In this document: positions 1 to 64,000 of the stretch, in pieces | Layout: each line of letters opens with the position of its first letter | How positions within the stretch are numbered: the first letter of the stretch is position 1 | From: Syntrophaceae bacterium UBA2280 | GTDB taxonomy: Bacteria > Desulfobacterota > Syntrophia > Syntrophales > Smithellaceae | DNA length: 64,000 nt | Reading direction: 5' to 3' | Assembly: GCA_002347685.1 (NCBI GenBank) | Contig: DDWS01000013.1 | Location: forward strand, 146,472-210,471 | Translations under genes and position numbers: made by a program | The notes under the pieces: generated by a model | Told to the model about the DNA's origin: nothing | What the model saw: the letters and a program-made list of their open reading frames with translations, nothing else | Databases searched by the model: none

Positions 1-6
1 CCTTTT

Positions 7-58
7 ATTAGTCTATTAGCCTATTAGACTGTAGGCTGTTAGACTGTAGGCTGTTAGG
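7..58. repeat. Heptanucleotide tandem-repeat tract (units CTGTAGG / CTGTTAG / CTATTAG)
   Basis: Read directly: ttagtct attagcct attagact gtaggct gttagact gtaggct gttagg, with a period of about 7 nt. Same family as the tracts at 124-160, 1004-1031, 29595-29631 and 38995-39019. Confidence 0.7.
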
Positions 59-123
59 TTAAGAGGTGCGGCGTATAAAGCGCCGTCATCCGTAAAAAAG
101 AATAAAGCCGGAGGCCACAAAGC

Positions 124-160
124 AGCCCTAATAGCCTACAGCCTACAGCCAAATAGCCTA
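124..160. repeat. Heptanucleotide tandem-repeat tract (AGCCTAC type) overlapping the stop codon of the 158..940 gene
   Basis: Sequence is cagcccta atagccta cagccta cagcc aaatagccta. The final cta (158-160) is the TAG stop of the minus-strand enoyl-CoA hydratase gene. Confidence 0.7.
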
Positions 161-940
161 TTTACCTATGAACGCAGGTTTTCGTTTTTCCAGAAACGCC
201 TTCATGCCTTCTTTCTGATCCTGCGTGCTGAAGCACTGCGAAATCGCGCCAAGTTCAAGCTTTACCGCGTTATCGAGGGACATGTCAAATCCGTAATTGA
301 TACTGTTTTTTGCCATCTTCAAAGCAAAACCCGGAAGGGTGGTGAACTTCCCGGCCATCTTTCCTGCTTCTTCCATAAGCTGCGCCAGCGGGACCACTTT
401 ATTGACCAGACCGATCTCATAGGCCCGCTGCGCGCTGATCTGGCCGCCACCCAAAATCAGCTCCTTGGCAATGCCCATGCCCACCAGTCGCGGCAGCCTC
501 TGTGTACCGCCCCATCCGGGCAGAATGCCAATGAGAATTTCCGGCTGACCGAACATGGCATTTTCCGCTGCAATCCGGATGTCGCAGGCCAGCGCGATTT
601 CCGTGCCGCCGCCCAGCGCGAAACCGTTTACGGCGGCAATCGACGGTTTCCCCATCGTTTCGAGGAAACGCAGGGTTTCCTGACCCAACTCCATGAGCTT
701 CATGATATCCACCGGCGTCGCATTCTGCATCTGTGAAATATCCGCGCCCGCCACAAATGCCTTTTCCCCGGCCCCCGTCAGAACGAGCACTTTCACCGCG
801 TCATCCCGATCGCAGACTTTAAGCGCATCCGCCAGTTCGGACATCACTTCATAACTCATCGCGTTTAAAACTTTAGGGCGGTTGAACGTAATCCGGGCGA
901 TCCCTTCACTGATTTCCAATAAAATATTCTTATAATCCAT
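158..940 (-). CDS. Enoyl-CoA hydratase/isomerase (crotonase family)
   Basis: 260 aa. Crotonase-fold signatures are present (VLTGAGEKAFVAGADI, NGFALGGGTEIALACDIRIAAENA, FGQPE). Confidence 0.85.
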   Translation of the reverse strand: MDYKNILLEISEGIARITFNRPKVLNAMSYEVMSELADALKVCDRDDAVKVLVLTGAGEKAFVAGADISQMQNATPVDIMKLMELGQETLRFLETMGKPSIAAVNGFALGGGTEIALACDIRIAAENAMFGQPEILIGILPGWGGTQRLPRLVGMGIAKELILGGGQISAQRAYEIGLVNKVVPLAQLMEEAGKMAGKFTTLPGFALKMAKNSINYGFDMSLDNAVKLELGAISQCFSTQDQKEGMKAFLEKRKPAFIGK

Positions 941-961
941 TTTATTCTCCTGTTGTGCTTA

Positions 962-997
962 TGAAAAAGCCCCTTGTCCGGCAAGGACAAGGGGCTT
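962..997 (-). terminator. Rho-independent terminator after the Fe-S oxidoreductase gene
   Basis: 13-bp stem aagccccttgtcc / ggacaaggggctt with a 5-nt loop. On the minus strand it is followed by TTTTTC. Confidence 0.6.
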
Positions 998-1003
998 CAA
1001 TCA

Positions 1004-1031
1004 ATAGCCTATAGCCTATTGCCTATAGCCT
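1004..1031. repeat. Heptanucleotide tandem repeat (ATAGCCT x4, one variant unit)
   Basis: Sequence is atagcct atagcct attgcct atagcct, lying 6 nt downstream of the stop codon (1037-1039) of the minus-strand gene. Confidence 0.75.
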
Positions 1032-1036
1032 GTTTT

Positions 1037-3151
1037 TTATACCGCACAAGTGTCCACGGGCGGCTTGATTTCTTCCTTGCCCATAGCCTTGACGACCAGT
1101 TCGGCAAGATCCCAGGTCTGCATCGACTCGGTCATCTGGTTATCCTTGATCCCGTCGGCCATCATAGTCAGACAGAACGGGCAGCCCACGGCAATCGTGT
1201 CGGCCTTGACATCCATCGCCTGCTTCGTACGCGTGTTATTGATGCGATCTCCGATATCTTCTTCCATCCACATTCTCGCACCACCTGCGCCACAGCAGAA
1301 GCTCTTGTCGAGGGTTCTCTCCATTTCGACAACTTCTATGCCGCGGATGGCCTTCAAAATCTGACGCGGTGCGTCATAGATTTTGTTGTAGCGGCCCAGG
1401 AAGCATGAATCGTGATACACAAACCTGCCCTTCAACGCTTCCGGCAGCTTGATTTTGCCGTCGGCGATGAGCTTCGCGATAATCTCGGTGTGGTGATACA
1501 CTTCGTAATTTCCGCCGAAATTGGGGTAATCTTTTTTCATCGCGTTAAAACCGTGCGGACAGATGGCGATGATCTTCTTCACGCCGTATCCGTTCATCGT
1601 GTCAATATTGGCCTGAGCCAGCGCCTGGAAAAGGTACTCGTTACCAGCACGCATGGCGGAATCACCGCAGCAGCCTTCCTCGTTACCCAGGATACCGAAG
1701 CTGACACCCGCTTCCTGCAGAATCTTCGCAAACGCGACGGAAATTTTCTTGCCGCGATCGTCAAACGAACCGGAACAGCCGACGTAGAACAGATATTCCA
1801 CGTTGGGATCTTCGGCCAGTGTCTTGACACCCATCTCTTTGGCCCAGTCGCCGCGAAGATGCGCACCCACACCCCAGGGATTGGAATTGTTCTCCATGTT
1901 GCGGCAGGTCAACTGAAGCTCAGGAGCAAAATCCGCTTCGGTCAGAACCTTGTAGCGTCGCATGTCAATAATTTTCGGCACATGTTCGATGGACGAGGAA
2001 CAATGTTCCATACAATACATACAATTGGTGCAAGCCCACAGTTCATGCAGATCGACCACTTCGCCGACCAGCGCTTTCCCGCCTTCTTCTTCGGTCGGTA
2101 CCTCGCCTGCTTTAGCGGCTTTTACCGCGGCGGGGGCCTTTTCCAGCCAGAAGGTTTTAATGTCCTGAACCAGCTTCTTGGGCGACAGGGGCTTGCCGGT
2201 CAGATAGGCCGGGCAGCCGTCCTGACAGCGACCGCAGCGAGTGCAGGCGTCAGAATCAAAGATCTGCTTCCAGGTGAATTCCTCGAGTTTGCCGACACCG
2301 AATGCCTCGGCGTTTTCAAAATCACGGATTGGTTCAATGTAACCGGTCGGCTTATGGGACTGGAGGAAATGATTCGCGGGTGTCGTAATCATATGCAACA
2401 GACGCGAATAGGGAATGTAGGCGATGAAACCGAGCGCCAGAATGGCATGCACCCACCAACTCGCCAGATGCAGTGTGCGGGCGGTATCCAACTCGACGCC
2501 TGTAAACGTCTTGGCCAATAGCCAGCCCACAAACGACCAGTATTCCCAGGGCGGATTGGTCACGTGAATACGAAGAGCCTCGACAATGAAGCCGGTTACA
2601 ATGATGGCGCCGATGAGCAGCAGAACAATCACGTCGTCCGGCGTGGTGTCCATCTTGCCCTTATAGCCCAGACGATCGGGTTTTGTGACGAAGCGGCGGT
2701 CGAGCGCCATGATCACACCGACCAGCACGAACAATCCGAAGAGATCCAACAGGAAAGAAAAGCCTAAATAAAAATTGCCTTTGAGAAATGTCCAGCCGAA
2801 CAGGGGTTCCGTGACATGGTGCTGACCTGCGTCAAAAGCGGCGCCGAAAATCAAAACAAAAAAGCCGAAAAAGATCAGGCCATGCATGATGCCGGGATAA
2901 AGGTCACGCCAGGTCTTCACCTGCAACAACCCTTCAAGAATGACGGCTTTCACTCGTTCGCCCATATTGTCTAAACGCATTTCCGGCTTGCCCATGGCTT
3001 TCCACATCTGCCAGCGGCGGTAGACACCATAGCCGAAAATGGCCATCGCGACCGCCGTAAGTGCGAAAAGTAGGATCTCAAACGCCGGCAGAGGAATGTT
3101 CCAGAAAACCTCTCGACCTTCCATACCTACATAAAATTCATGTTCTTTCAT
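1037..3151 (-). CDS. Membrane-bound Fe-S oxidoreductase: N-terminal multi-TM NarI/DsrM-like domain fused to an HdrD/DsrK/GlpC-like domain with two 4Fe-4S motifs and CCG domains. Probable Etf:quinone oxidoreductase partner.
   Basis: 704 aa. The N-terminus is hydrophobic. Ferredoxin-type motifs CTRCGRCQDGCP and CTNCMYCMEHC are present, as are cysteine-rich CCG-type motifs (GCCGDS, FCCGAGG). It lies directly downstream of etfBA. Confidence 0.8.
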   Translation of the reverse strand: MKEHEFYVGMEGREVFWNIPLPAFEILLFALTAVAMAIFGYGVYRRWQMWKAMGKPEMRLDNMGERVKAVILEGLLQVKTWRDLYPGIMHGLIFFGFFVLIFGAAFDAGQHHVTEPLFGWTFLKGNFYLGFSFLLDLFGLFVLVGVIMALDRRFVTKPDRLGYKGKMDTTPDDVIVLLLIGAIIVTGFIVEALRIHVTNPPWEYWSFVGWLLAKTFTGVELDTARTLHLASWWVHAILALGFIAYIPYSRLLHMITTPANHFLQSHKPTGYIEPIRDFENAEAFGVGKLEEFTWKQIFDSDACTRCGRCQDGCPAYLTGKPLSPKKLVQDIKTFWLEKAPAAVKAAKAGEVPTEEEGGKALVGEVVDLHELWACTNCMYCMEHCSSSIEHVPKIIDMRRYKVLTEADFAPELQLTCRNMENNSNPWGVGAHLRGDWAKEMGVKTLAEDPNVEYLFYVGCSGSFDDRGKKISVAFAKILQEAGVSFGILGNEEGCCGDSAMRAGNEYLFQALAQANIDTMNGYGVKKIIAICPHGFNAMKKDYPNFGGNYEVYHHTEIIAKLIADGKIKLPEALKGRFVYHDSCFLGRYNKIYDAPRQILKAIRGIEVVEMERTLDKSFCCGAGGARMWMEEDIGDRINNTRTKQAMDVKADTIAVGCPFCLTMMADGIKDNQMTESMQTWDLAELVVKAMGKEEIKPPVDTCAV

Positions 3152-3206: not shown

Positions 3207-3250
3207 CAAAAAAAAGGTCTTTGCCCCGCATCACGGGGCAAAGACCTTTG
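3207..3250 (-). terminator. Rho-independent (bidirectional-looking) terminator after etfA
   Basis: Perfect 13-bp stem aggtctttgcccc / ggggcaaagacct with a 7-nt loop, flanked by an A-run and a T-run. On the minus strand it is followed by TTTTTTTT. Confidence 0.8.
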
Positions 3251-8312: not shown

Positions 8313-8666
8313 ATGAACAAGAATTTGTATGTCGGCAACCTGTCTTTCAAGGTCACGGATGAAGACCTGAAGGCAAATTTTTCAGAAGCGGGAGAAGTCG
8401 CCACAGCGGCGATCATCAAGGACAAATTCACCGGGCAGTCCAAGGGATTTGGATTCGTCGAGATGAAAACGGAAGAAGGCGCCACTCAGGCCATTGAGAA
8501 ATTTCACGGCGGCATGCTCGACGGCAAAGCCATTACCGTGAATGAAGCCAGACCCAAGAAAGAATTCAGCGCCGGTGGAAACCGCGGCGGTGGAAACCGC
8601 AGCGGTGGCGGCGGTGGCTTTGGCAATCGCAGCGGTGGCGGTGGCGGCGGTCGCGGCAGATACTAG
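8313..8666 (+). CDS. RNA-binding protein, single RRM domain with a Gly/Arg-rich tail
   Basis: 117 aa. RNP-2 is LYVGNL and RNP-1 is KGFGFVEM. The C-terminus reads GGNRGGGNRSGGGGGFGNRSGGGGGGRGRY. Confidence 0.9.
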   Translation: MNKNLYVGNLSFKVTDEDLKANFSEAGEVATAAIIKDKFTGQSKGFGFVEMKTEEGATQAIEKFHGGMLDGKAITVNEARPKKEFSAGGNRGGGNRSGGGGGFGNRSGGGGGGRGRY

Positions 8667-14545: not shown

Positions 14546-15727
14546 ATGGAAGACACAAAGAGTTTTGCCGAAATGTTTGAAGAATCCTACGCCACGCCCA
14601 AACATTTTTCAGTCGGTGAAAAGGTGGAGGCAACGATTGTCAATATTTCCCCTGAATGGGTTTTTGTGGACCTGGGCGCGAAAAGCGAAGGCTACATTGA
14701 CAAAAAAGAATTTCTCGCCGATGACGGCAGCCTGACGGTTAAAGAAGGAGACGTCATCACCGCATACTTTCTGTCATCGCGCCACAGTGAAAAACTCTTC
14801 ACGACCAAGCTGACCGCGAAAAAAAGCGTGGATGAATTCCTCGTCAACGCTTATCAAAACGCCATTCCCCTGGAGGCCATCGTTGAAAGGGAAGTCAAGG
14901 GAGGCTTTTCCGTAAGAATCAGCGCCAACGCGAACGGTTTTTGCCCCTTTTCGCAAATGGAAACGCGCAGAATCGACACTGCCGCGGATTATATTGGCAA
15001 AAAATTGGATTTTATCGTCATTGAATACGGAGAAAACGGCCGCAAGATCATCTTGTCGCGACGTCCTTTGCTCGAAAAAATCGAGCAGGACAAAATCGCC
15101 GGACTCAAAGAAACCCTCAAAAAGGGCATGACCGTGCAAGGCGTGGTCACCTCCGTGCGCGACTTCGGTGCGTTTGTCGATATCGGCGGCATGCAGGCGC
15201 TGCTTCCGGTTTCGGAAATGACCTGGGGCCGGGTGGACGATACGAAATCTCTCTATAAGCCGGGCGACACCATCGAAGCCGTCATCATCAACCTGGATTG
15301 GGAAAACGACCGCGTAACATTGTCCTTTAAGGACACCCTGCCGGATCCGTGGAATGAGGTTGTCCGCAATTACGTAGAAGGCAGCACCCACAGGGGTAAG
15401 GTCTCACGGCTGACGGATTTCGGCGCGTTTATCACGCTGGAGGCAGGCGTGGACGGCCTTTTGCATATCTCCAAGCTGGGCAAAGGAAAAAAGATCAAAC
15501 ACGCCCAGGATGTCTTGTCCAAAGATCGCGAAATCGACGTGAAGATCGAAAAGATCGACCGCGACAGCAGGAGAATTTCGCTGGACCTGGCATCCAACGA
15601 CGAGGGAAAACAGGCGGTAGACAAAGAAGAGAAAGACGATTATCAGAACTATCTGCCCAAGTCACCCAACACCATGGGCACCTTCGGAGATTTGCTGAGC
15701 GGGGCTAAAAAGAAGAAAAGCCCGTAG
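14546..15727 (+). CDS. S1 RNA-binding domain protein (four S1 repeats, Lys-rich tail)
   Basis: 393 aa. Repeated S1 signatures are present (GxxVxGxVxxxxxFGAFVDIGG, RLTDFGAFITL). It is shorter than a canonical six-domain RpsA. Confidence 0.75.
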   Translation: MEDTKSFAEMFEESYATPKHFSVGEKVEATIVNISPEWVFVDLGAKSEGYIDKKEFLADDGSLTVKEGDVITAYFLSSRHSEKLFTTKLTAKKSVDEFLVNAYQNAIPLEAIVEREVKGGFSVRISANANGFCPFSQMETRRIDTAADYIGKKLDFIVIEYGENGRKIILSRRPLLEKIEQDKIAGLKETLKKGMTVQGVVTSVRDFGAFVDIGGMQALLPVSEMTWGRVDDTKSLYKPGDTIEAVIINLDWENDRVTLSFKDTLPDPWNEVVRNYVEGSTHRGKVSRLTDFGAFITLEAGVDGLLHISKLGKGKKIKHAQDVLSKDREIDVKIEKIDRDSRRISLDLASNDEGKQAVDKEEKDDYQNYLPKSPNTMGTFGDLLSGAKKKKSP

Positions 15728-15758
15728 CCTTTAGCCTTTATCATGTCAATGTTGCGGT

Positions 15759-28015: not shown

Positions 28016-28399
28016 TTAATCCGCCGGACTGCCACGGAGCCCGGCGGCCAGATTCAGGTTGATATCCATAATGATCTTGAGCTTTTCCGGCTGAGGGTCG
28101 GCCATGATCTGAATGATGCGGTTGTCGATAAATACACTGAGCGTCAGGATGCTCTGGCGGATCTCGATCGGAAGCGGATTATCGTCTCTGACCAGTTCCG
28201 ACTGGAGGATGCTCCAGACGACCTGGTTGGTTCTAAGCGCTTCGGCCAAGAGGTCATCACGATCAGGCGTGTCCCAGTTTTTCACGCAATCGGACAAAAG
28301 CAGCGCGCAACGTGTCAGCGCGGCGGCCTCGATGTCTCTCCCCGACATATTATCGGTTTTCTGTGCTGTTCGATAGGCTTCGAGTTCTCTCGGATACAC
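28016..28399 (-). CDS. flaF: Flagellar biosynthesis regulator FlaF, paralog 1
   Basis: 127 aa, with a GTG start. The FlaF pattern is present (AYRTAQ...REIEAAALTRCALLL...NQVVWSILQSEL...NPLPIEIRQSILTLSVF). Confidence 0.75.
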   Translation of the reverse strand: MYPRELEAYRTAQKTDNMSGRDIEAAALTRCALLLSDCVKNWDTPDRDDLLAEALRTNQVVWSILQSELVRDDNPLPIEIRQSILTLSVFIDNRIIQIMADPQPEKLKIIMDINLNLAAGLRGSPAD

Positions 28400-28461: not shown

Positions 28462-28602
28462 AGCCCATGCAACGTAATAGATACTTTCAAGGCTGATCAT
28501 AATCGTCGATAAAACCTGACCAATCTTGATGATACTGGCATTTATCGGATGAATAATGTAGGATAGCAGACACAAAGGCAAACGATATTGCAGAGGAAAA
28601 CT

Positions 28603-28980
28603 GTGAAAAACGATATCTGTCATGAACTGCGGAACAAAAAACCCCTTATGCCGGTTCTGCCGGATGAGCAAAAAGTGAACGAGCAGGATTCTCTTTCGTT
28701 ATCTTTGCTACGACCATCTTTGTTCTGGGATGTGAATCCGGATAGGCTGGACGCAGACCGGCATGCAGCCTTCATTATTGTCCGTGTTATGGAACGCGGC
28801 ACACGGGAAGATGTCAACACCGTCTGGCATTATTACGGTGAGGAGACTATAAAAATACATCTTTTAGCCGCGAGATCATTGCATAAAAAGACCATTTCCT
28901 ATTTTGCAAATAAGTTCAGTGTCAGCCGCGCACAATTTAAAAGCTTTCACCACGGAGAGCAGGTCCAGCCATGGCCTTAA
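28603..28980 (+). CDS. Small partner protein of the AbiEii-like nucleotidyltransferase (putative antitoxin-like; LFWD motif family)
   Basis: It contains PSLFWDVNPDRLD...HAAFIIVRVMERG, a pattern I recognise from proteins encoded upstream of AbiEii-like genes. The start is ambiguous (28588 TTG, 28603 GTG after AGAGGA, or 28648 ATG). The 3' end overlaps the next gene by 10 nt. Confidence 0.5.
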   Translation: MKNDICHELRNKKPLMPVLPDEQKVNEQDSLSLSLLRPSLFWDVNPDRLDADRHAAFIIVRVMERGTREDVNTVWHYYGEETIKIHLLAARSLHKKTISYFANKFSVSRAQFKSFHHGEQVQPWP

Positions 28981-29588
28981 CAGAAATTATTAAAATAGCC
29001 GTTACTGACGATGTTCTAACGCTTCTTCATAGAATTATGCAGGATGCGGTTTTTGATGATTTTTATCTGGTTGGCGGTACAGCGCTGGCTTTGCAAATTG
29101 GACACCGCGTATCGATAGATATCGACCTTTTTACGGGTGAAATATTCGATACCGACCAAATCAGCGATTATATCTGTCATGTTTACGAAGGTAAAGAAAT
29201 AGAGGTGGAACGAAACACCGTTCGAGCAATCATCGATAGCATCAAGCTCGATTTAATGACTCACAAGTATCCATTGCTTGAACCACTCGAAAAAAAAGAG
29301 AATATCCGCATGGCAAATCTAAAAGACATCGCCGCTATGAAAATTAACGCCATTGCCAGTCGGGGAAGCAAAAAGGATTTCTGGGATTTTGCCGCCCTGC
29401 TTGATTTCTTTCAGGCACAGGAAATGCTTTCGTTTTTTCAATCCAAGTATTCCAATGCAAACGTATGGCACGCCGAAAAATCTTTGTCGTATTTCGACGA
29501 CGCCGACCTGGAGCCTGACCCAAATGACATAACAGGGAAAAACTGGGAGGAAATCAAGCAACGCATCAACAGTTCACTAAAGGTTTGA
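28971..29588 (+). CDS. Nucleotidyltransferase AbiEii/AbiGii toxin-family protein
   Basis: 205 aa. The motif FYLVGGTALALQIGHRVSIDIDLF is typical of the AbiEii-like NTase fold. Confidence 0.65.
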   Translation: MALTEIIKIAVTDDVLTLLHRIMQDAVFDDFYLVGGTALALQIGHRVSIDIDLFTGEIFDTDQISDYICHVYEGKEIEVERNTVRAIIDSIKLDLMTHKYPLLEPLEKKENIRMANLKDIAAMKINAIASRGSKKDFWDFAALLDFFQAQEMLSFFQSKYSNANVWHAEKSLSYFDDADLEPDPNDITGKNWEEIKQRINSSLKV

Positions 29589-29594
29589 AATTTT

Positions 29595-29631
29595 TAGACC
29601 TACAGCCTAACAGCCCACAGCCTAATAGCCT
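29595..29631. repeat. Heptanucleotide tandem-repeat tract
   Basis: Sequence is tagaccta cagccta acagccc acagccta atagcct. It fills the gap between the AbiEii stop (29588) and the flaF2 stop (29638). Confidence 0.7.
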
Positions 29632-29637
29632 TTAATA

Positions 29638-30021
29638 TCATTCCGCCGCGCTGCCTCTGAGCCCCGCGGCGAGATTCAGGTTAATGTCGATGACGATCTT
29701 GAGTTTTTCCGGTTCGGGATTCGCCATAACATCAATAATTCGTTTATCAACAAAAAGGCTGAGTGTCAGGATGTTGTTGCGAATCTCGACGGGCAGGGGA
29801 TTGTCATCTTTCACCAGCTCCGATTGTAGAATACTCCAGACCACCTGGTTGGTTCTGAGCGCCTCGGCTAAATTTTCATCACGGTCGGGGGCATTCCAGT
29901 GTTTACGGCAATCCTCCAGCAAGAGTGCGCAACGGGTCAGCGCAGCGGCTTCAATATCGCGGCCGGACATATTATTGGAATTCTGTGCGGTTCTATAGGC
30001 TTCGAGTTGCAGTGCGTACAC
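29638..30021 (-). CDS. flaF: Flagellar biosynthesis regulator FlaF, paralog 2
   Basis: It aligns along its full length with paralog 1. I place the start at the GTG at 30021, which lies 9 nt after GGGAGG and matches the paralog 1 N-terminus (YxxxLEAYRTAQ). The ORF track extends it to 30048. Confidence 0.75.
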   Translation of the reverse strand: MYALQLEAYRTAQNSNNMSGRDIEAAALTRCALLLEDCRKHWNAPDRDENLAEALRTNQVVWSILQSELVKDDNPLPVEIRNNILTLSLFVDKRIIDVMANPEPEKLKIVIDINLNLAAGLRGSAAE

Positions 30022-30400
30022 GGTTGATGACCTCCCGTTCGTATTCAATGAGTTTTTTCGTTTGTTTCAGCGCCTGATAATGCCGGTCGTTGAGAATATC
30101 GTTGCTGATCTCCTGCAACATTGGCTTGGTGGAAGGCGCCGCCTGGGCCACATCCTTGACCAGTTCCCAGTAAATCTTGTGATGCTCCGGAAGATTCTTG
30201 CCATCGATATACATGAGCTGAATGGCAAAATAAATTTTCTTGCACGGAGTGTCCGCCGACTGAAGCGTCAGAATATCTTTTTCCCGCAGGATCGGCACAT
30301 CGTTTTCAAGCACAAAGGTACTTTTGGCATCGCCGTTGGCGATGACCGCGCCGCCGAGAATGAATTTTTCGTGCGGCTTGAGCGTTATTTTTAGGGCCAT
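29993..30400 (-). CDS. flbT: Flagellar biosynthesis repressor FlbT
   Basis: 135 aa. MALKITLKPHEKFILGGAVIANGD...VLENDVPILREKDI matches the FlbT N-terminal pattern (LKLSLKPGEK..NGAV..N.....L....VLREKDI). Confidence 0.75.
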   Translation of the reverse strand: MALKITLKPHEKFILGGAVIANGDAKSTFVLENDVPILREKDILTLQSADTPCKKIYFAIQLMYIDGKNLPEHHKIYWELVKDVAQAAPSTKPMLQEISNDILNDRHYQALKQTKKLIEYEREVINRVRTATRSL

Positions 30401-32454: not shown

Positions 32455-32585
32455 GGGGTTTTTGGAAAAATCTAAAAATAATCAAAAAAATCGAGGTGAT
32501 GGGCAAGAGGCTACAGCCCTTCGAATCTTTCATCTTCCCCATCCACTATTCACCAGCCACCATCCACCATCCACCGCCCCTCCCC

Positions 32586-38218: not shown

Positions 38219-39010
38219 ATGCAAACCCTGTTTCAAAACGCATCACAAAACCAGGTAAAACAGTGGGCAAGGCTTGCCGACGCAAAATTCCGCAGGGAAG
38301 ACAGCATGTTTCTGGCCGAGGGCGCAAAAGTCGTTGAAGAACTGTTGAAAAGTGACTGGGAGGCCCGGGCGCTGCTGGTTTTGTTGGGAAAAGACCGGTA
38401 TTGGGAAAAACGGATCGATCTCGATGCGAACCGGATCCCCGTTTATCAGCTGACACGTCCGCAGTTCAATAAATTAAGCCAGGACAAGGAACCGGAGGGG
38501 ATTGCGGCCGTGGTTCAGAAAAAAGACCCGCCCACGCTGACATCGTTTCTTCCCTCCGCGACAGGGCCCCTGCTCATCGGCCATGAAATCGCCAATCCGC
38601 AAAATCTTGGGGCGCTTGCGCGCAGCGCCCACTGGTTCGGCTTCGCGGGCATTCTTCTGGGTGCGCGCAGCGTGGACTGGACAAACCCCAAGGTTATCCG
38701 CGCCTCGATGGGCAGTATTTTCCATTTGAACGTTTTTGAGGACATGGATCTGGCCTCGGTGCTTCCGGACGTGAAAAAACATTATCTGCTCATCGGCAGC
38801 GACGTGCGACAGGGTGTTTCGCCGCGCACCCCCGGGGGGAAAACGGCCCTCCTTTTGGGCAGCGAAAGCCACGGCCTGCCGGAGAGTTTGCTGGGCATGG
38901 CCGACGAGCGCTGGCGCATCCCCGGCGGCAGTCAAACCGAATCGCTCAGCCTCCCGCAGGCGGCGGCAATCATGATGCATGAAATGACGAAGAAGGCTGT
39001 AGGCTGTTAG
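38219..39010 (+). CDS. TrmH/SpoU-family RNA 2'-O-methyltransferase
   Basis: 263 aa. SpoU motifs are PQNLGALARSA, LLLGSESHGLP and SLSLPQAAAIMM. Confidence 0.8.
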   Translation: MQTLFQNASQNQVKQWARLADAKFRREDSMFLAEGAKVVEELLKSDWEARALLVLLGKDRYWEKRIDLDANRIPVYQLTRPQFNKLSQDKEPEGIAAVVQKKDPPTLTSFLPSATGPLLIGHEIANPQNLGALARSAHWFGFAGILLGARSVDWTNPKVIRASMGSIFHLNVFEDMDLASVLPDVKKHYLLIGSDVRQGVSPRTPGGKTALLLGSESHGLPESLLGMADERWRIPGGSQTESLSLPQAAAIMMHEMTKKAVGC

Positions 39011-39019
39011 GCTGCTAGG
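38995..39019. repeat. Heptanucleotide tandem repeat overlapping the trmH-like stop codon
   Basis: Sequence is ggctgta ggctgtt aggctgc tagg. The gene's TAG stop (39008-39010) is one of the repeat TAGs. Confidence 0.7.
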
Positions 39020-62582: not shown

Positions 62583-64000
62583 AATTACGCCAAGAAATCC
62601 CCGATGATTCCGGCCGCCCCCGCGAGGAGTGCGGCGTATTTGCCGTTTACGGTCATGAAGACGCTGCGCGCGTCGCTTTTTTCGGCCTTTTCGCCCTCCA
62701 GCACCGCGGGCAGGAATCGGCGGGCATCGTCAGCTCCGACGGCTGCCAGGTCAGAGAGCACAAGGGCATGGGCCTGGCCTCTGCCGTGTTCGAGGAAGCG
62801 ACGCTCCTGAAGCTTGCCGGTTCGCTGGCTATCGGCCATGTCCGCTACTCCACAACCGGATCCTCCACGCTGTCTAACGCTCAGCCGTTTTTAGCCCATG
62901 TCGGCGAGGAGTATTACGCGCTGGGACACAACGGCAACATCGTCAACGCGCAAAAACTGCGCGCGGAACTGGAAGACAGCGGATCTATTTTCCAATCGAC
63001 CATGGACAGCGAGGTCATCATCCATTTGATGGCGCCGCATCTGAAAAAAGGGCTGGAAGAAGCCCTGACGATCGCTCTGGCACGGGTGGAAGGAGCCTAC
63101 AGCCTAGTGATGCTGACCCGCGACAGAATCATCGCCGCCCGCGATCCGCGCGGATTCAGGCCGCTGGCCCTGGGACAACTCAACGGCGGATGGGTGGTCG
63201 CCTCCGAAACCTGCGCGTTTGACCTGGTCGGCGCCCGGTACGTCCGGGACGTTGAACCCGGCGAGATCCTCATCATCGACGCCAACGGGTGTCAAAGTCT
63301 CAAGCCGTTCGCTTTGGTGAAACACTGCCACTGCATTTTCGAGCTGATTTATTTCGCGCGTCCCGACAGCCAGATCTTCGGCCAGAATGTCTACCTGTGC
63401 CGCAAGCGCCTGGGCCATCAACTGGCCCGTGAATATTGTCCGGATGTCGACTTGGTGATGCCCTTTCCGGATTCCGGAAATTATGCGGCAATTGGGTATG
63501 CAGAACAAAGCGGTCTTCCTTTCGAAATGGGCATGATTCGCAACCACTATGTCGGGAGGACGTTTATTCAACCCACCCAACCGATGCGCGATTTTGCCGT
63601 ACGCGTCAAGCTCAACCCGGTCAAGCCTCTTTTGGAAGGCAAGAAAGTCATGATCGTCGAAGATTCCATCATACGAGGCACAACCAGCCGCAACCGCGTG
63701 AAGCATCTGCAGGGGATCGGTATCAAGGAGCTTCACATGGTCATCAGCTGTCCGCCCACCCTGTTTCCCTGTCCCTACGGCATCGACTTTTCCTCCAAAG
63801 GAGAGCTCATCGCCGCCAAAAAGGAAAACGAAAAAGCCATTGCCGCATTTATCGGCCTGGATTCGCTCCATTACCTGACCGTAGACGGCATGGTCCAGGC
63901 CACCGGCATGCCCAGAGAGTGCTTTTGCCTGGCCTGCTACACCGGCGATTACCCCATCGCCCCGCCCGAGAAGATCGACAAATTCTGCATGGAAATGAAA
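62579..64000 (+). CDS. purF: Amidophosphoribosyltransferase (3' end runs off the window)
   Basis: This gene is not in the ORF track because it is open at the window edge. The ATG at 62579 overlaps the carB stop (ATGA). The translation reads [50 protein letters not shown]... and ends ...[18 protein letters not shown]. Confidence 0.9.

Follow-up and report, generated by a model that had tools for sequence, protein, structure and literature searches.

The cyanobacterial repeats STRR1-3 are reportedly tandem heptanucleotide arrays that lie in non-coding DNA in many copies per genome, as Mazel et al. are said to have found in 1990. Intergenic heptameric simple-sequence repeats have been described in Xanthomonas (unit GGGAATC) and Nostoc (unit GGGGAYT) by Rehm et al. 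2015 (PMC4692102); they occur in many dispersed copies, about 90% of them intergenic and typically with four units in Xanthomonas, are nearer to the upstream than to the downstream ORF with a strong bias to adjoin or overlap a stop codon, frequently form convergent inverted pairs, and vary in length and sequence among close relatives. Long simple-sequence repeats of heptanucleotides are in general excess in prokaryotes according to Mrazek et al. 2007, as cited in PMC4679880. The TAACTGA direct repeats of marine Beggiatoaceae, cyanobacteria and Bacteroidetes (MacGregor 2015, PMC4679880) generally precede start codons by a few nt and hardly ever form inverted pairs.

GTAG REPs are stem-loops of 20-40 bp with an unpaired tag (Di Nocera et al. 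2013, PMC3733652; Bertels and Rainey 2011, PMC3116915). They form inverted dimers 20-100 bp apart with GTAG outward, are probably transcribed, and are found under 20 bp away from ORF 3' ends where genes run in one direction or converge, their TAG serving as stop (PMC3733652). In the Coxiella 23S rRNA IVS, RNase III cuts the stem and variable heptameric repeats adjoin the S23p ORF (PMC4990558).

The window analysed here, by which we mean the whole 64-kb stretch of DNA whose first lines are given above, contains tandem heptamers of another sequence. The pattern TAGGCTNTAGGCT, with at most two mismatches, is matched 17 times against 1.64 expected, and none of 100 shuffles reaches 17, so the tracts listed in a first-pass annotation of this DNA are present far above chance. 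The unit is (T)TAGGCTR, 7 or 8 nt long, repeated 3-7 times in each of five solid tracts that lie within intergenic gaps or at their edges (Table 1) and make up one complete inverted pair (124-160 / 7-58) and three orphan arms. Like the Xanthomonas and Nostoc heptamers, the window tracts have a 7-nt period, are dispersed, multi-copy and overwhelmingly intergenic, adjoin stop codons, include a convergent pair and vary in length. The unit is none of those already named (GGGAATC, GGGGAYT, STRR1-3); unlike the Xanthomonas and Nostoc units it contains a stop codon, is not rich in G-tracts and has no G-quadruplex potential, and the host here is a Smithella-like deltaproteobacterium. The annotation's comparison with the cyanobacterial STRRs is apt as to form, both being tandem non-coding heptamers, whereas unit sequence and taxon differ. 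TAGGCTR is a new sequence family within an already described kind of repeat, and the window tracts are the Smithella-like version of the Xanthomonas/Nostoc/STRR intergenic heptamers, with REP/REPIN-like behaviour; taken alone, the window holds an ordinary repeat class that is new in its sequence version and in its host lineage (syntrophic Smithella). The literature on the exact unit TAGGCTR yielded only unrelated primer sequences, and Rfam covariance models gave no match at gathering score anywhere in the window.

Table 1. Heptamer tracts and neighbouring features, in positions of the window
Feature	Position	Strand	Remarks
3' arm of paired element	7..58	-	inverted partner of 124-160
Spacer (loop) of paired element, unique, 65 nt	59..123	-	between the two arms; small GC hairpin and U-rich run
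5' arm of paired element	124..160	-	first TAG (158-160) is the ECH stop
Enoyl-CoA hydratase (ECH) gene	158..940	-	
Intrinsic terminator	964..995	-	11-bp GC-rich stem 969-995, U-tract 964-968
Orphan array, 4 units	1004..1031	-	CAGGCTA TAGGCAA TAGGCTA TAGGCTA
RRM protein gene	8313..8666		
Weak 2-unit TAGCCTT repeat	15725..15738	+	TAG stop of S1-domain protein gene; 2 mismatches, divergent unit
AbiEii gene	28971..29588	+	TGA stop 29586-88
Orphan array, 5 units of 7-8 nt	29595..29631	-	TAGGCT-type in FlaF sense
FlaF gene	29638..30048	-	TGA stop 29638-40
Orphan array	38993..39019	+	AAGGCTG TAGGCTG TTAGGCTG CTAGG

Four of the solid tracts and the weak repeat at 15725-15738 lie 0-6 nt from a stop codon. 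As annotated, three tracts hold the gene's own TAG (158-160 on the minus strand, 15725-15727 and 39008-39010) and two others start within 8 nt of a stop (1004-1031 at 5 nt and 29595-29631 at 6 nt), and the mRNA-sense reading (UAGGCUR)n, claimed for at least three tracts, is found in 124-160, 1004-1031, 29595-29631 (relative to FlaF) and 38993-39019. The remaining solid tract, 7-58, which the annotation counted among six gene ends in its heading but could not place for want of its neighbour, is not at a gene 3' end: in extended contigs it adjoins the start codon of the gene for phosphoglycerate mutase (iPGM), situated directly beyond the window edge on the minus strand (start codon ~10 nt past window position 1), and the tract ends a few nt ahead of that gene's ribosome-binding site and start. 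Coupling to stop codons, which the annotation did not know to be described, is not new either, having been reported for the Xanthomonas and Nostoc heptamers (PMC4692102).

The complete pair occupies the gap between the ECH and iPGM genes. On the sense strand its 5' arm reads TAGGCTA TTTGGCTG TAGGCTG TAGGCTA TTAGGGCTG, and its 3' arm reads CCTAACAGCCTA CAGTCTA ACAGCCTA CAGTCTA, after which comes a short flipped segment, ATAGGCTAATAGACTAAT. The arms form a convergent, stem-loop-forming inverted pair with a long stem (fold z -3.8 to -5.0), ~19 bp in the window strain and, in the ~98% identical strain L127, ~34 bp with runs of up to 18; the stem is kept despite differing units, with z of -7.2 in L127 and -8.6 in the relative L124. 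In a test of G·U strand asymmetry both strands of the element fold equally well, so a role of the sense-strand RNA is not singled out. By analogy with the 23S rRNA IVS and REPs, the stem in an ECH-iPGM read-through transcript would probably act in RNase III-type processing or 3'-end stabilisation. The spacer has no repeats elsewhere in the window or in the compared loci, and a repeated MITE core was rejected on that ground. The TAG stop of ECH keeps its position in relatives, among them L125, which lacks the paired element.

The orphan array at 1004-1031 starts 5 nt past the TAA (1037-1039, minus strand) of a gene for a 704-aa ETF-linked Fe-S oxidoreductase, and sits between that stop and the gene's terminator, which lies directly downstream of the array and is separate from the repeat. 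The fold signal in this neighbourhood (z -5.45) is driven by the terminator hairpin, the array itself having no significant structure, and a terminator is found at the matching place also in relatives without the array. Arrays were accordingly rejected as intrinsic terminators: no U-tract follows them, and the 964-995 hairpin is present without the array. The array at 29595-29631 fills the 49-nt gap between the convergent AbiEii and FlaF genes and is 6 nt from both stops; the second boundary of this AbiE toxin-antitoxin insertion was checked for arrays and has none. The third orphan, 38993-39019, runs across the final four codons (A V G C) and the stop of a SpoU-type methyltransferase gene, and the CutA gene starts ~30-40 nt downstream of it. 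Compared with shuffles, neither 29595-29631 on either strand nor 38993-39019 shows a significant fold, orphan arrays giving z of -1.0 and +0.7, and the orphan arms are predicted to be unstructured 3'-UTR sequence.

Unit count, arm composition and presence or absence all differ among relatives. L127 has five units at the 1004-1031 site where the window has four, indicating slippage of the kind that the first-pass annotation had proposed when it suggested a comparison of strains; within one strain there is no variation in copy number, four independent assemblies being identical. Relatives whose ECH is 84-87% identical lack the 1004-1031 array, which is absent in L124-L126. L124 has the paired element, spacer included, turned round with respect to the genes on either side, L126 has a degenerate copy, and L125 has none, its intergenic gap there measuring 39 nt.

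TAGGCTR arrays are widespread: a three-unit pattern finds them in at least 120 stretches, which span over 20 phyla and candidate phyla of bacteria, with 3-4 loci apiece in several genomes. This spread may be less special than it looks, as TAGGCTR has 27 matches in viral contigs versus 18, 7 and 1 for permuted control heptamers (1.5-4 times rarer), and we do not present the unit as universal or special. The 120 loci, drawn from many phyla, hold 181 arrays in our tabulation; period 7 is dominant there (201 arrays versus at most 18 for any other period) and arrays reach 17 units in other genomes. Pairs lie 3-200 nt apart, face outward, and are ordered TAGGCT...AGCCTA in 33 cases versus 2 reversed (binomial p = 4e-8), both of the latter being mere neighbouring pairs. 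The coupling to stops and the sense orientation seen in the window extend to this set, in which 51 of 80 arrays are within 15 nt of the stop of a co-oriented upstream ORF, 27 using a TAG of the array itself, as opposed to only 6 of 61 antisense arrays. Orphan arrays taken alone give 31 sense versus 5 antisense stop-proximal cases. The ORF calls in the 120 loci are crude (longest-ORF greedy), and in high-GC genomes the TAG-rich arm ends spurious ORFs and inflates sense counts; ORFs of at least 150 aa ending at an array number 65 sense versus 4 antisense, and loci below 55% GC keep the effect (17 versus 0). The outward TAG arm and the stop-proximal bias across phyla are testable regularities for any model of heptamer origin.

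We think it somewhat probable that the tracts belong to a dispersed, fast-evolving family of (T)TAGGCTR heptamer arrays, an intergenic passenger that is selfish or near-neutral and not a dedicated stop device. Replication slippage adds and removes units, whole arrays come and go between related species, and the segment between two arms can invert, as the strain and species comparisons show. The elements follow the plan 5'-(TAGGCTR)n ... (YAGCCTA)n-3', in which the TAG-bearing, G-rich arm faces outward; therefore any ORF that abuts such an element by its 3' end meets TAG codons, and an element that lies flush with a gene, or has overwritten its last codons, would supply the stop. Gene ends overwritten and stops donated in this way affect the annotation of C-termini and 3' UTRs, and heptamer arrays also break assemblies. 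No insertion bearing target-site marks came to light, and the presence and absence of arrays could reflect local birth and decay instead of insertion. Counter to neutrality, the pairing maintained across species and the strong stop-proximal bias could reflect host selection for function.

A possible origin for such a passenger comes from the four-helix-bundle (4HB) family PF05635, the S23p family of the Coxiella IVS: of the families listed for 97 array-flanking ORFs, no other is enriched. Each of the three wide pairs (369-427 nt) has a 4HB gene inside it, and a 4HB gene adjoins the array in 3 of the 27 viral-contig matches and in none of the control-heptamer loci. From the gene side, 76 4HB loci, fetched independently with a narrow 4HB alignment, have a period-7 array within 220 nt in 43 cases and inverted-complementary pairs in 17; period-7 arrays occur in 30 of 54 4HB-flanking windows versus 4 of 54 windows ~900 nt away, and other periods in 0-3 of 54. 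Such a link has not been reported for the Xanthomonas and Nostoc heptamers. Like the Coxiella IVS, the 124-160 / 7-58 pair has terminal inverted repeats that form a long stem round a loop, and a strain-variable number of heptamers in its arms, and TAGGCTR-type arms in other genomes enclose genes of the IVS gene family. Unlike the IVS, the window element lies between protein-coding genes and not inside 23S rRNA, and its loop carries no ORF: no PF05635 ORF was found in the window, L001 or L124-L127, the loop here being 65 nt, and 4HB genes, transposases and other mobility genes are all lacking from the window and from ~80 kb of extended and relative loci. The mobile-element fragments that the annotation had named as what would undo its reading are partly in evidence, the arrays being inverted termini of a small gene cassette in other genomes. 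Since the arms bracket a 4HB gene elsewhere, the window arrays are probably 'empty' or orphaned cassette termini, and the tracts probably derive from this cassette type.

In its widest form, which we put forward tentatively and regard as rather unlikely, this idea would make RAGGCTG/TAGGCTR inverted repeats the termini of widespread, unrecognised IVS-like S23p/4HB (Avd-like) cassettes lodged in the 3' UTRs of ordinary genes in many phyla, which read-through would transcribe and RNase III would release, with the window arrays as their footprints. If so, many unexplained bacterial heptamer repeats would have one origin, and the function of S23p, which may bind the arrays, would for the first time be approachable from genomes. 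Either way, the 4HB (S23p/IVS) link is a concrete origin hypothesis for heptamer repeats and a tractable experimental way into the role of this abundant protein family.

The arrays might instead be 3'-UTR or DNA binding sites, (U)UAGGCUR acting as multivalent sites for a sequence-specific protein that controls mRNA fate. The predicted single-stranded state of the orphan arrays, the conserved AGGCT core with its variable linker and the strict 7-nt register are consistent with this; in many genomes the arrays flank the gene of a pentameric protein family of nucleic-acid-binding type, and the window encodes an RRM protein and an S1-domain protein. Against these points, no cognate protein has been identified, no 4HB gene lies within the window or the neighbouring 20 kb, the sites are not conserved between related species, unit number changes freely, and such a role has been suggested, but not proven, for other heptamers (PMC4679880). 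We consider a binding array improbable; candidates for its protein would be the S23p-type 4HB protein, where present, or an RNA binder of RRM, S1 or KH type.

A host-selected, all-frame translational stop or insulator that catches read-through and frameshifted ribosomes, the first role offered by the annotation, would account for the sense-strand TAG every 7-8 nt, the strong bias of stop-adjacent arrays toward the TAG-bearing orientation, the TAG arm as the outward arm of pairs, and the use of the array TAG as the gene's own stop in three window tracts. The bias in orientation, however, follows from the pair-order rule alone. The annotation had further held that the repeat places stop codons in all frames of both strands, yet in two of the five tracts (124-160 and 29595-29631) one of the three sense frames stays open because their 8-nt units break phase, and (CAGCCTA)n contains no stop codon at all. 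Moreover, arrays of up to 17 units far exceed what is needed, the stop-free GGGAATC of Xanthomonas shows equal stop-proximal placement, the genes of relatives without the 1004-1031 array (ECH 84-87% identical) end normally, and one arm (7-58) precedes a start codon. With frames left open, stop-free heptamers placed alike, absence in relatives and an arm before a start, the case for a dedicated stop device is weak and we judge it quite improbable. The TAACTGA repeats resemble the TAGGCTR arrays as stop-containing intergenic heptamers with 2-6 copies per set and a patchy distribution across distant phyla, and differ from them in that TAGGCTR arrays are mostly just past stops and often paired.

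Mobilisation as a GTAG-type REP/REPIN by a RAYT (Y1) transposase, with GTAG-outward HH dimers within 20 nt of ORF 3' ends, is likewise quite improbable. The window elements share with GTAG REPs, REPINs and BIMEs the GTAG motif (GTAGGCT), GTAG-outward dimers near ORF 3' ends, and the donation of TAG stops; the 3-200 nt spacing of outward-facing pairs and the site between unidirectional or convergent ORFs also fit. But the array is a 7-nt direct repeat without self-complementarity and not a 20-40 bp palindrome, single arrays do not fold, and GTAG is reiterated in every heptamer unit, internal to the repeat and base-paired in the stem of pairs, and is hard to equate with an unpaired terminal tag. 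No RAYT-like family is among the 25 of 105 matched families listed for the 97 flanking ORFs, where the sole enriched neighbour is PF05635 among the matches listed.

Contingency (phase-variation) loci, in which array slippage would switch adjacent genes, are most improbable: unit number does differ between close strains, 38993-39019 overlaps a gene's last codons and a ribosome-binding site follows closely on arm 7-58, but arrays past stops or in 3' UTRs cannot shift a frame by unit changes, the neighbours are housekeeping genes (beta-oxidation, glycolysis, rRNA methylation) and not surface or virulence genes, and four independent assemblies of one strain are identical.

Two short matches in the window were set aside. 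The repeat at 15725-15738 is probably a chance occurrence, having only two units of TAGCCTT in the opposite orientation, and the 2-unit match at 63094-63106, which lies within a long ORF where it encodes GAYSLV, is taken as chance.

The heptamer arrays that the first-pass annotation had described are present. Reading of the sequence and Tandem Repeats Finder both give arrays with units of 7 or 8 nt, (T)TAGGCTR or its complement, and a two-unit pattern with at most 2 mismatches has 17 matches in the window against 1.64 expected, a number that none of 100 shuffles reaches. Neighbouring genes were named from the ORF map and Pfam. The proposed placement at gene ends is correct for tracts 124-160, 1004-1031, 29595-29631 and 38993-39019, but 7-58 precedes a start codon, because the phosphoglycerate mutase gene (iPGM) starts some 10 nt outside the window, past position 1. 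Two other matches are probably due to chance: 15725-15738 has two units only, in the opposite orientation and of divergent sequence, and 63094-63106 lies inside a long ORF, where it encodes GAYSLV.

Heptamer arrays and associated features of the window
Feature	Position	Relation to flanking genes
Array	7-58	directly upstream of the iPGM start codon, on longer contigs of the same organism
Array	124-160	opens with the TAG stop of the minus-strand enoyl-CoA hydratase (ECH) gene
Array	1004-1031	starts 5 nt past the TAA of the ETF-linked Fe-S oxidoreductase gene
Intrinsic terminator	964-995	distinct from the array, next after 1004-1031
Array	29595-29631	occupies the 49-nt gap where AbiEii and FlaF converge, at 6 nt from the stop of either gene
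Array	38993-39019	supplies the final four codons and TAG of the SpoU-type methyltransferase gene
Weak two-unit TAGCCTT repeat	15725-15738	

Arrays 124-160 and 7-58 form a single inverted pair, each as one arm, around a unique 65-nt spacer, and this paired element takes up the entire 166-nt ECH-iPGM gap. A long arm-to-arm stem is predicted for its RNA (z -3.8 to -5.0) and is kept in two relatives with the same gene neighbourhood, L127 (z -7.2) and L124 (z -8.6), though their units differ; predicted folding is equally good on both strands and therefore does not point to one strand or molecule as the place where the structure matters. By analogy with 23S rRNA intervening sequences (IVS) and REPs, the paired copy probably serves the ECH-iPGM transcript as a double-stranded element for its processing or stabilisation. 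The remaining three tracts are unpaired (orphan) arms, none of which is predicted to fold significantly by itself, and an Rfam search of the whole window matched no family.

The ECH protein homologues carry the names Smithella or Smithellaceae, and the gene order oxidoreductase, ECH, iPGM is kept in four relatives. The between-strain comparison of tract length that had been proposed as a check for slippage was informative: a strain with 98% identical ECH has five units, not four, at the 1004-1031 site, and the unit numbers of its paired arms also differ from the window. Such differences between close strains point to slippage; among four assemblies of the same strain the tracts are identical. 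Three relatives whose ECH is 84-87% identical have no array from the stop to the conserved terminator at the 1004-1031 site. The paired element is absent from L125, where the ECH-iPGM gap is 39 nt, and degenerate in L126; in L124 (10781-10915, compared with window 1-165) it is present with the whole spacer inverted relative to the flanking genes, consistent with either a recombination event across the inverted arms or a separate insertion in the opposite orientation. The ECH TAG stop has the same position in all relatives compared, so that the array begins with a TAG that was already there.

A three-unit pattern matched at least 120 stretches in a species-representative genome collection, representing over 20 phyla, candidate phyla included; the matches listed include Verrucomicrobiota, Planctomycetota, Bacteroidota, Desulfobacterota, Nitrospirota, Acidobacteriota, Firmicutes and several gammaproteobacterial orders, and among them several genomes give 3-4 separate contigs each. 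Arrays were studied in 820 kb of matched loci, which contain 201 period-7 arrays with 61 different units, against at most 18 arrays of any other period. Pairs there are ordered 5'-(TAGGCTR)n ... (YAGCCTA)n-3' in 33 cases and the reverse in 2 (p = 4e-8), both exceptions being merely adjacent pairs; spacers are 3-196 nt long, or 369-427 nt in three cases. A stop lies within 15 nt of 51 of 80 arrays with a co-oriented ORF and of 6 of 61 with an antisense one, and the array's own TAG is the ORF stop in 27 co-oriented cases. Orphan arrays by themselves give 31 sense and 5 antisense cases near a stop, a bias that follows from the pair-order rule, since either arm, when it meets the 3' end of a gene, presents TAGGCT on the sense strand of that gene. 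ORFs of at least 150 aa that end at an array are sense in 65 cases and antisense in 4; ORF calls in these loci are crude and the TAG-rich arm ends spurious ORFs in high-GC DNA, for which loci below 55% GC (17 versus 0) are the control. Viral contigs have TAGGCTR×3 in 27 stretches and permuted heptamers in 18, 7 and 1; heptamer arrays are generally common, and we do not claim a unique spread of TAGGCTR. Many further arrays with unrelated units (e.g. TTGAACG, GGTTCGG, GGTGGAC, GTGTTTG, CTTTGCT) occur in the same genomes (L009, L088, L026, L113, L012 and others), and the common denominator seems to be the 7-nt period itself, not one sequence. In Steroidobacteraceae/Lysobacterales (L005, L031, L043, L109 and others) the arrays end with a conserved GTAGCCAGAG just inside the arm, and these elements therefore have lineage-specific sequence beyond the heptamers.

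The sole family enriched among 97 array-flanking ORFs of the matched loci listed is PF05635, the 23S rRNA-intervening-sequence protein S23p, a bAvd-related four-helix bundle (4HB). All three wide pairs (369-427 nt) enclose a 4HB gene, with (TAGGCTG)n before and (CAGCCTA)n after it in the gene's sense, and the arrangement recurs in 3 of the 27 viral-contig matches and in no control-heptamer locus. In the reverse direction, 80 metagenome loci were fetched on 4HB protein similarity alone; in 43 of the 76 usable ones the gene has a period-7 array no more than 220 nt away, in 21 on both sides and in 17 as inverted-complementary pairs, with 5' units GGAGGCT, GAAGGCT, GTAGGCT and GTAGTCT and their complements on the 3' side. 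Flanks are complete in 27 loci; of their 54 flanking windows, 30 contain a period-7 array, compared with 4 of 54 windows about 900 nt away, and for periods 5, 6, 8 and 9 the count is 0-3 of 54. The 5' arm also ends a co-oriented host ORF in 7 of 14 cases. RAGGCTG-type 5' arrays with a 3' complement are typical of PF05635 genes in L005, L015, L035, L036, L099, L102, L128, L134, L142 and L185-L264. The Coxiella 23S IVS is similar in having an S23p ORF in the loop of a 28-bp terminal-inverted-repeat stem, which RNase III cuts, and tandem heptameric repeats of strain-variable number adjoining the ORF (PMC4990558); gene and arms together resemble an IVS-like cassette located outside rRNA genes. Seven loci from Firmicutes and Desulfobacterota (L084, L096, L102, L105, L112, L115, L117) have a conserved sequence of about 100 nt beside the arrays (...GTTAGTCACGCATTGACCGAATCAAGGCGCTCAGAACC...), whose opposite strand encodes the C-terminal end of a 4HB protein (…KVLSALIRSMRD); such near-identical DNA across distant phyla suggests that the cassette has spread horizontally and recently. 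No 4HB gene was found in the window, the extended loci or the relative loci, so what ties the tracts of the window to these cassettes is shared architecture and unit type, not direct descent. That the arrays are footprints of an unrecognised S23p/4HB cassette class parasitising 3' UTRs is a tentative proposal.

Coupling of repeats to stop codons, thought undescribed in the first-pass annotation, is already known from sister families. Xanthomonas genomes each carry about 185 arrays of GGGAATC, a unit that, unlike TAGGCTR, holds no stop codon; these are about 90% intergenic, mostly of four units, in 70-75 convergent pairs, at a mean distance of 28 nt from the ORF upstream, strongly biased to adjoin or overlap its stop codon, and different between close species (Rehm et al. 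2015, PMC4692102). Most GTAG-tagged REPs, which are known from eight phyla, form dimers with the tags facing outwards and lie under 20 bp from the 3' end of an ORF, to which their termini often give a TAG stop (Di Nocera et al. 2013, PMC3733652). TAACTGA heptamers precede start codons (MacGregor 2015, PMC4679880). In the literature we could search, neither TAGGCTR as a unit nor Smithella as a host has been described before.

We give somewhat better than even weight to the tracts being a dispersed heptamer-array repeat, either selfish or near-neutral, whose turnover is by slippage and inversion as well as by gain and loss. Its contact with stop codons would come from the TAG-rich sequence of the outward arm and from the space just past ORFs being where such elements insert or are tolerated. 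An array serving to bind protein is possible, with a low probability. A dedicated device for stopping translation in all frames is unlikely: the all-frame stops that had been proposed are not found in every tract, two of the five solid ones closing two sense-strand frames only, and (CAGCCTA)n carries no stops. Membership of the REP/RAYT class is equally doubtful, since the units are not palindromic. Phase variation is very improbable.

Several other features of the window were noted. Another heptamer array (32539-32575), of about five copies of CCATCCA, a unit unrelated to TAGGCTR, lies in a C-rich, A/T-flanked leader some 60 nt before the ATG (32638) of a TPR-like gene in a flagellar region. 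Two FlaF paralogues (28016..28399 and 29638..30048, 77% identical) enclose an AbiEii/DUF6922 toxin-antitoxin pair that is encoded at 28588..29588 on the other strand, an arrangement suggestive of insertion or duplication within the flagellar flaF-flbT region; array 29595-29631 lies at one junction of this pair, with nothing comparable at the other. The gene at 8313-8666, kept beside the locus in relatives, encodes an RRM-domain RNA-binding protein whose glycine-rich tail derives from 15/30-nt tandem repeats (8569-8657). A perfect GC-rich palindrome of 16-17 bp with T-runs on both sides (3213-3249), between convergently ending genes, looks like a bidirectional intrinsic terminator.
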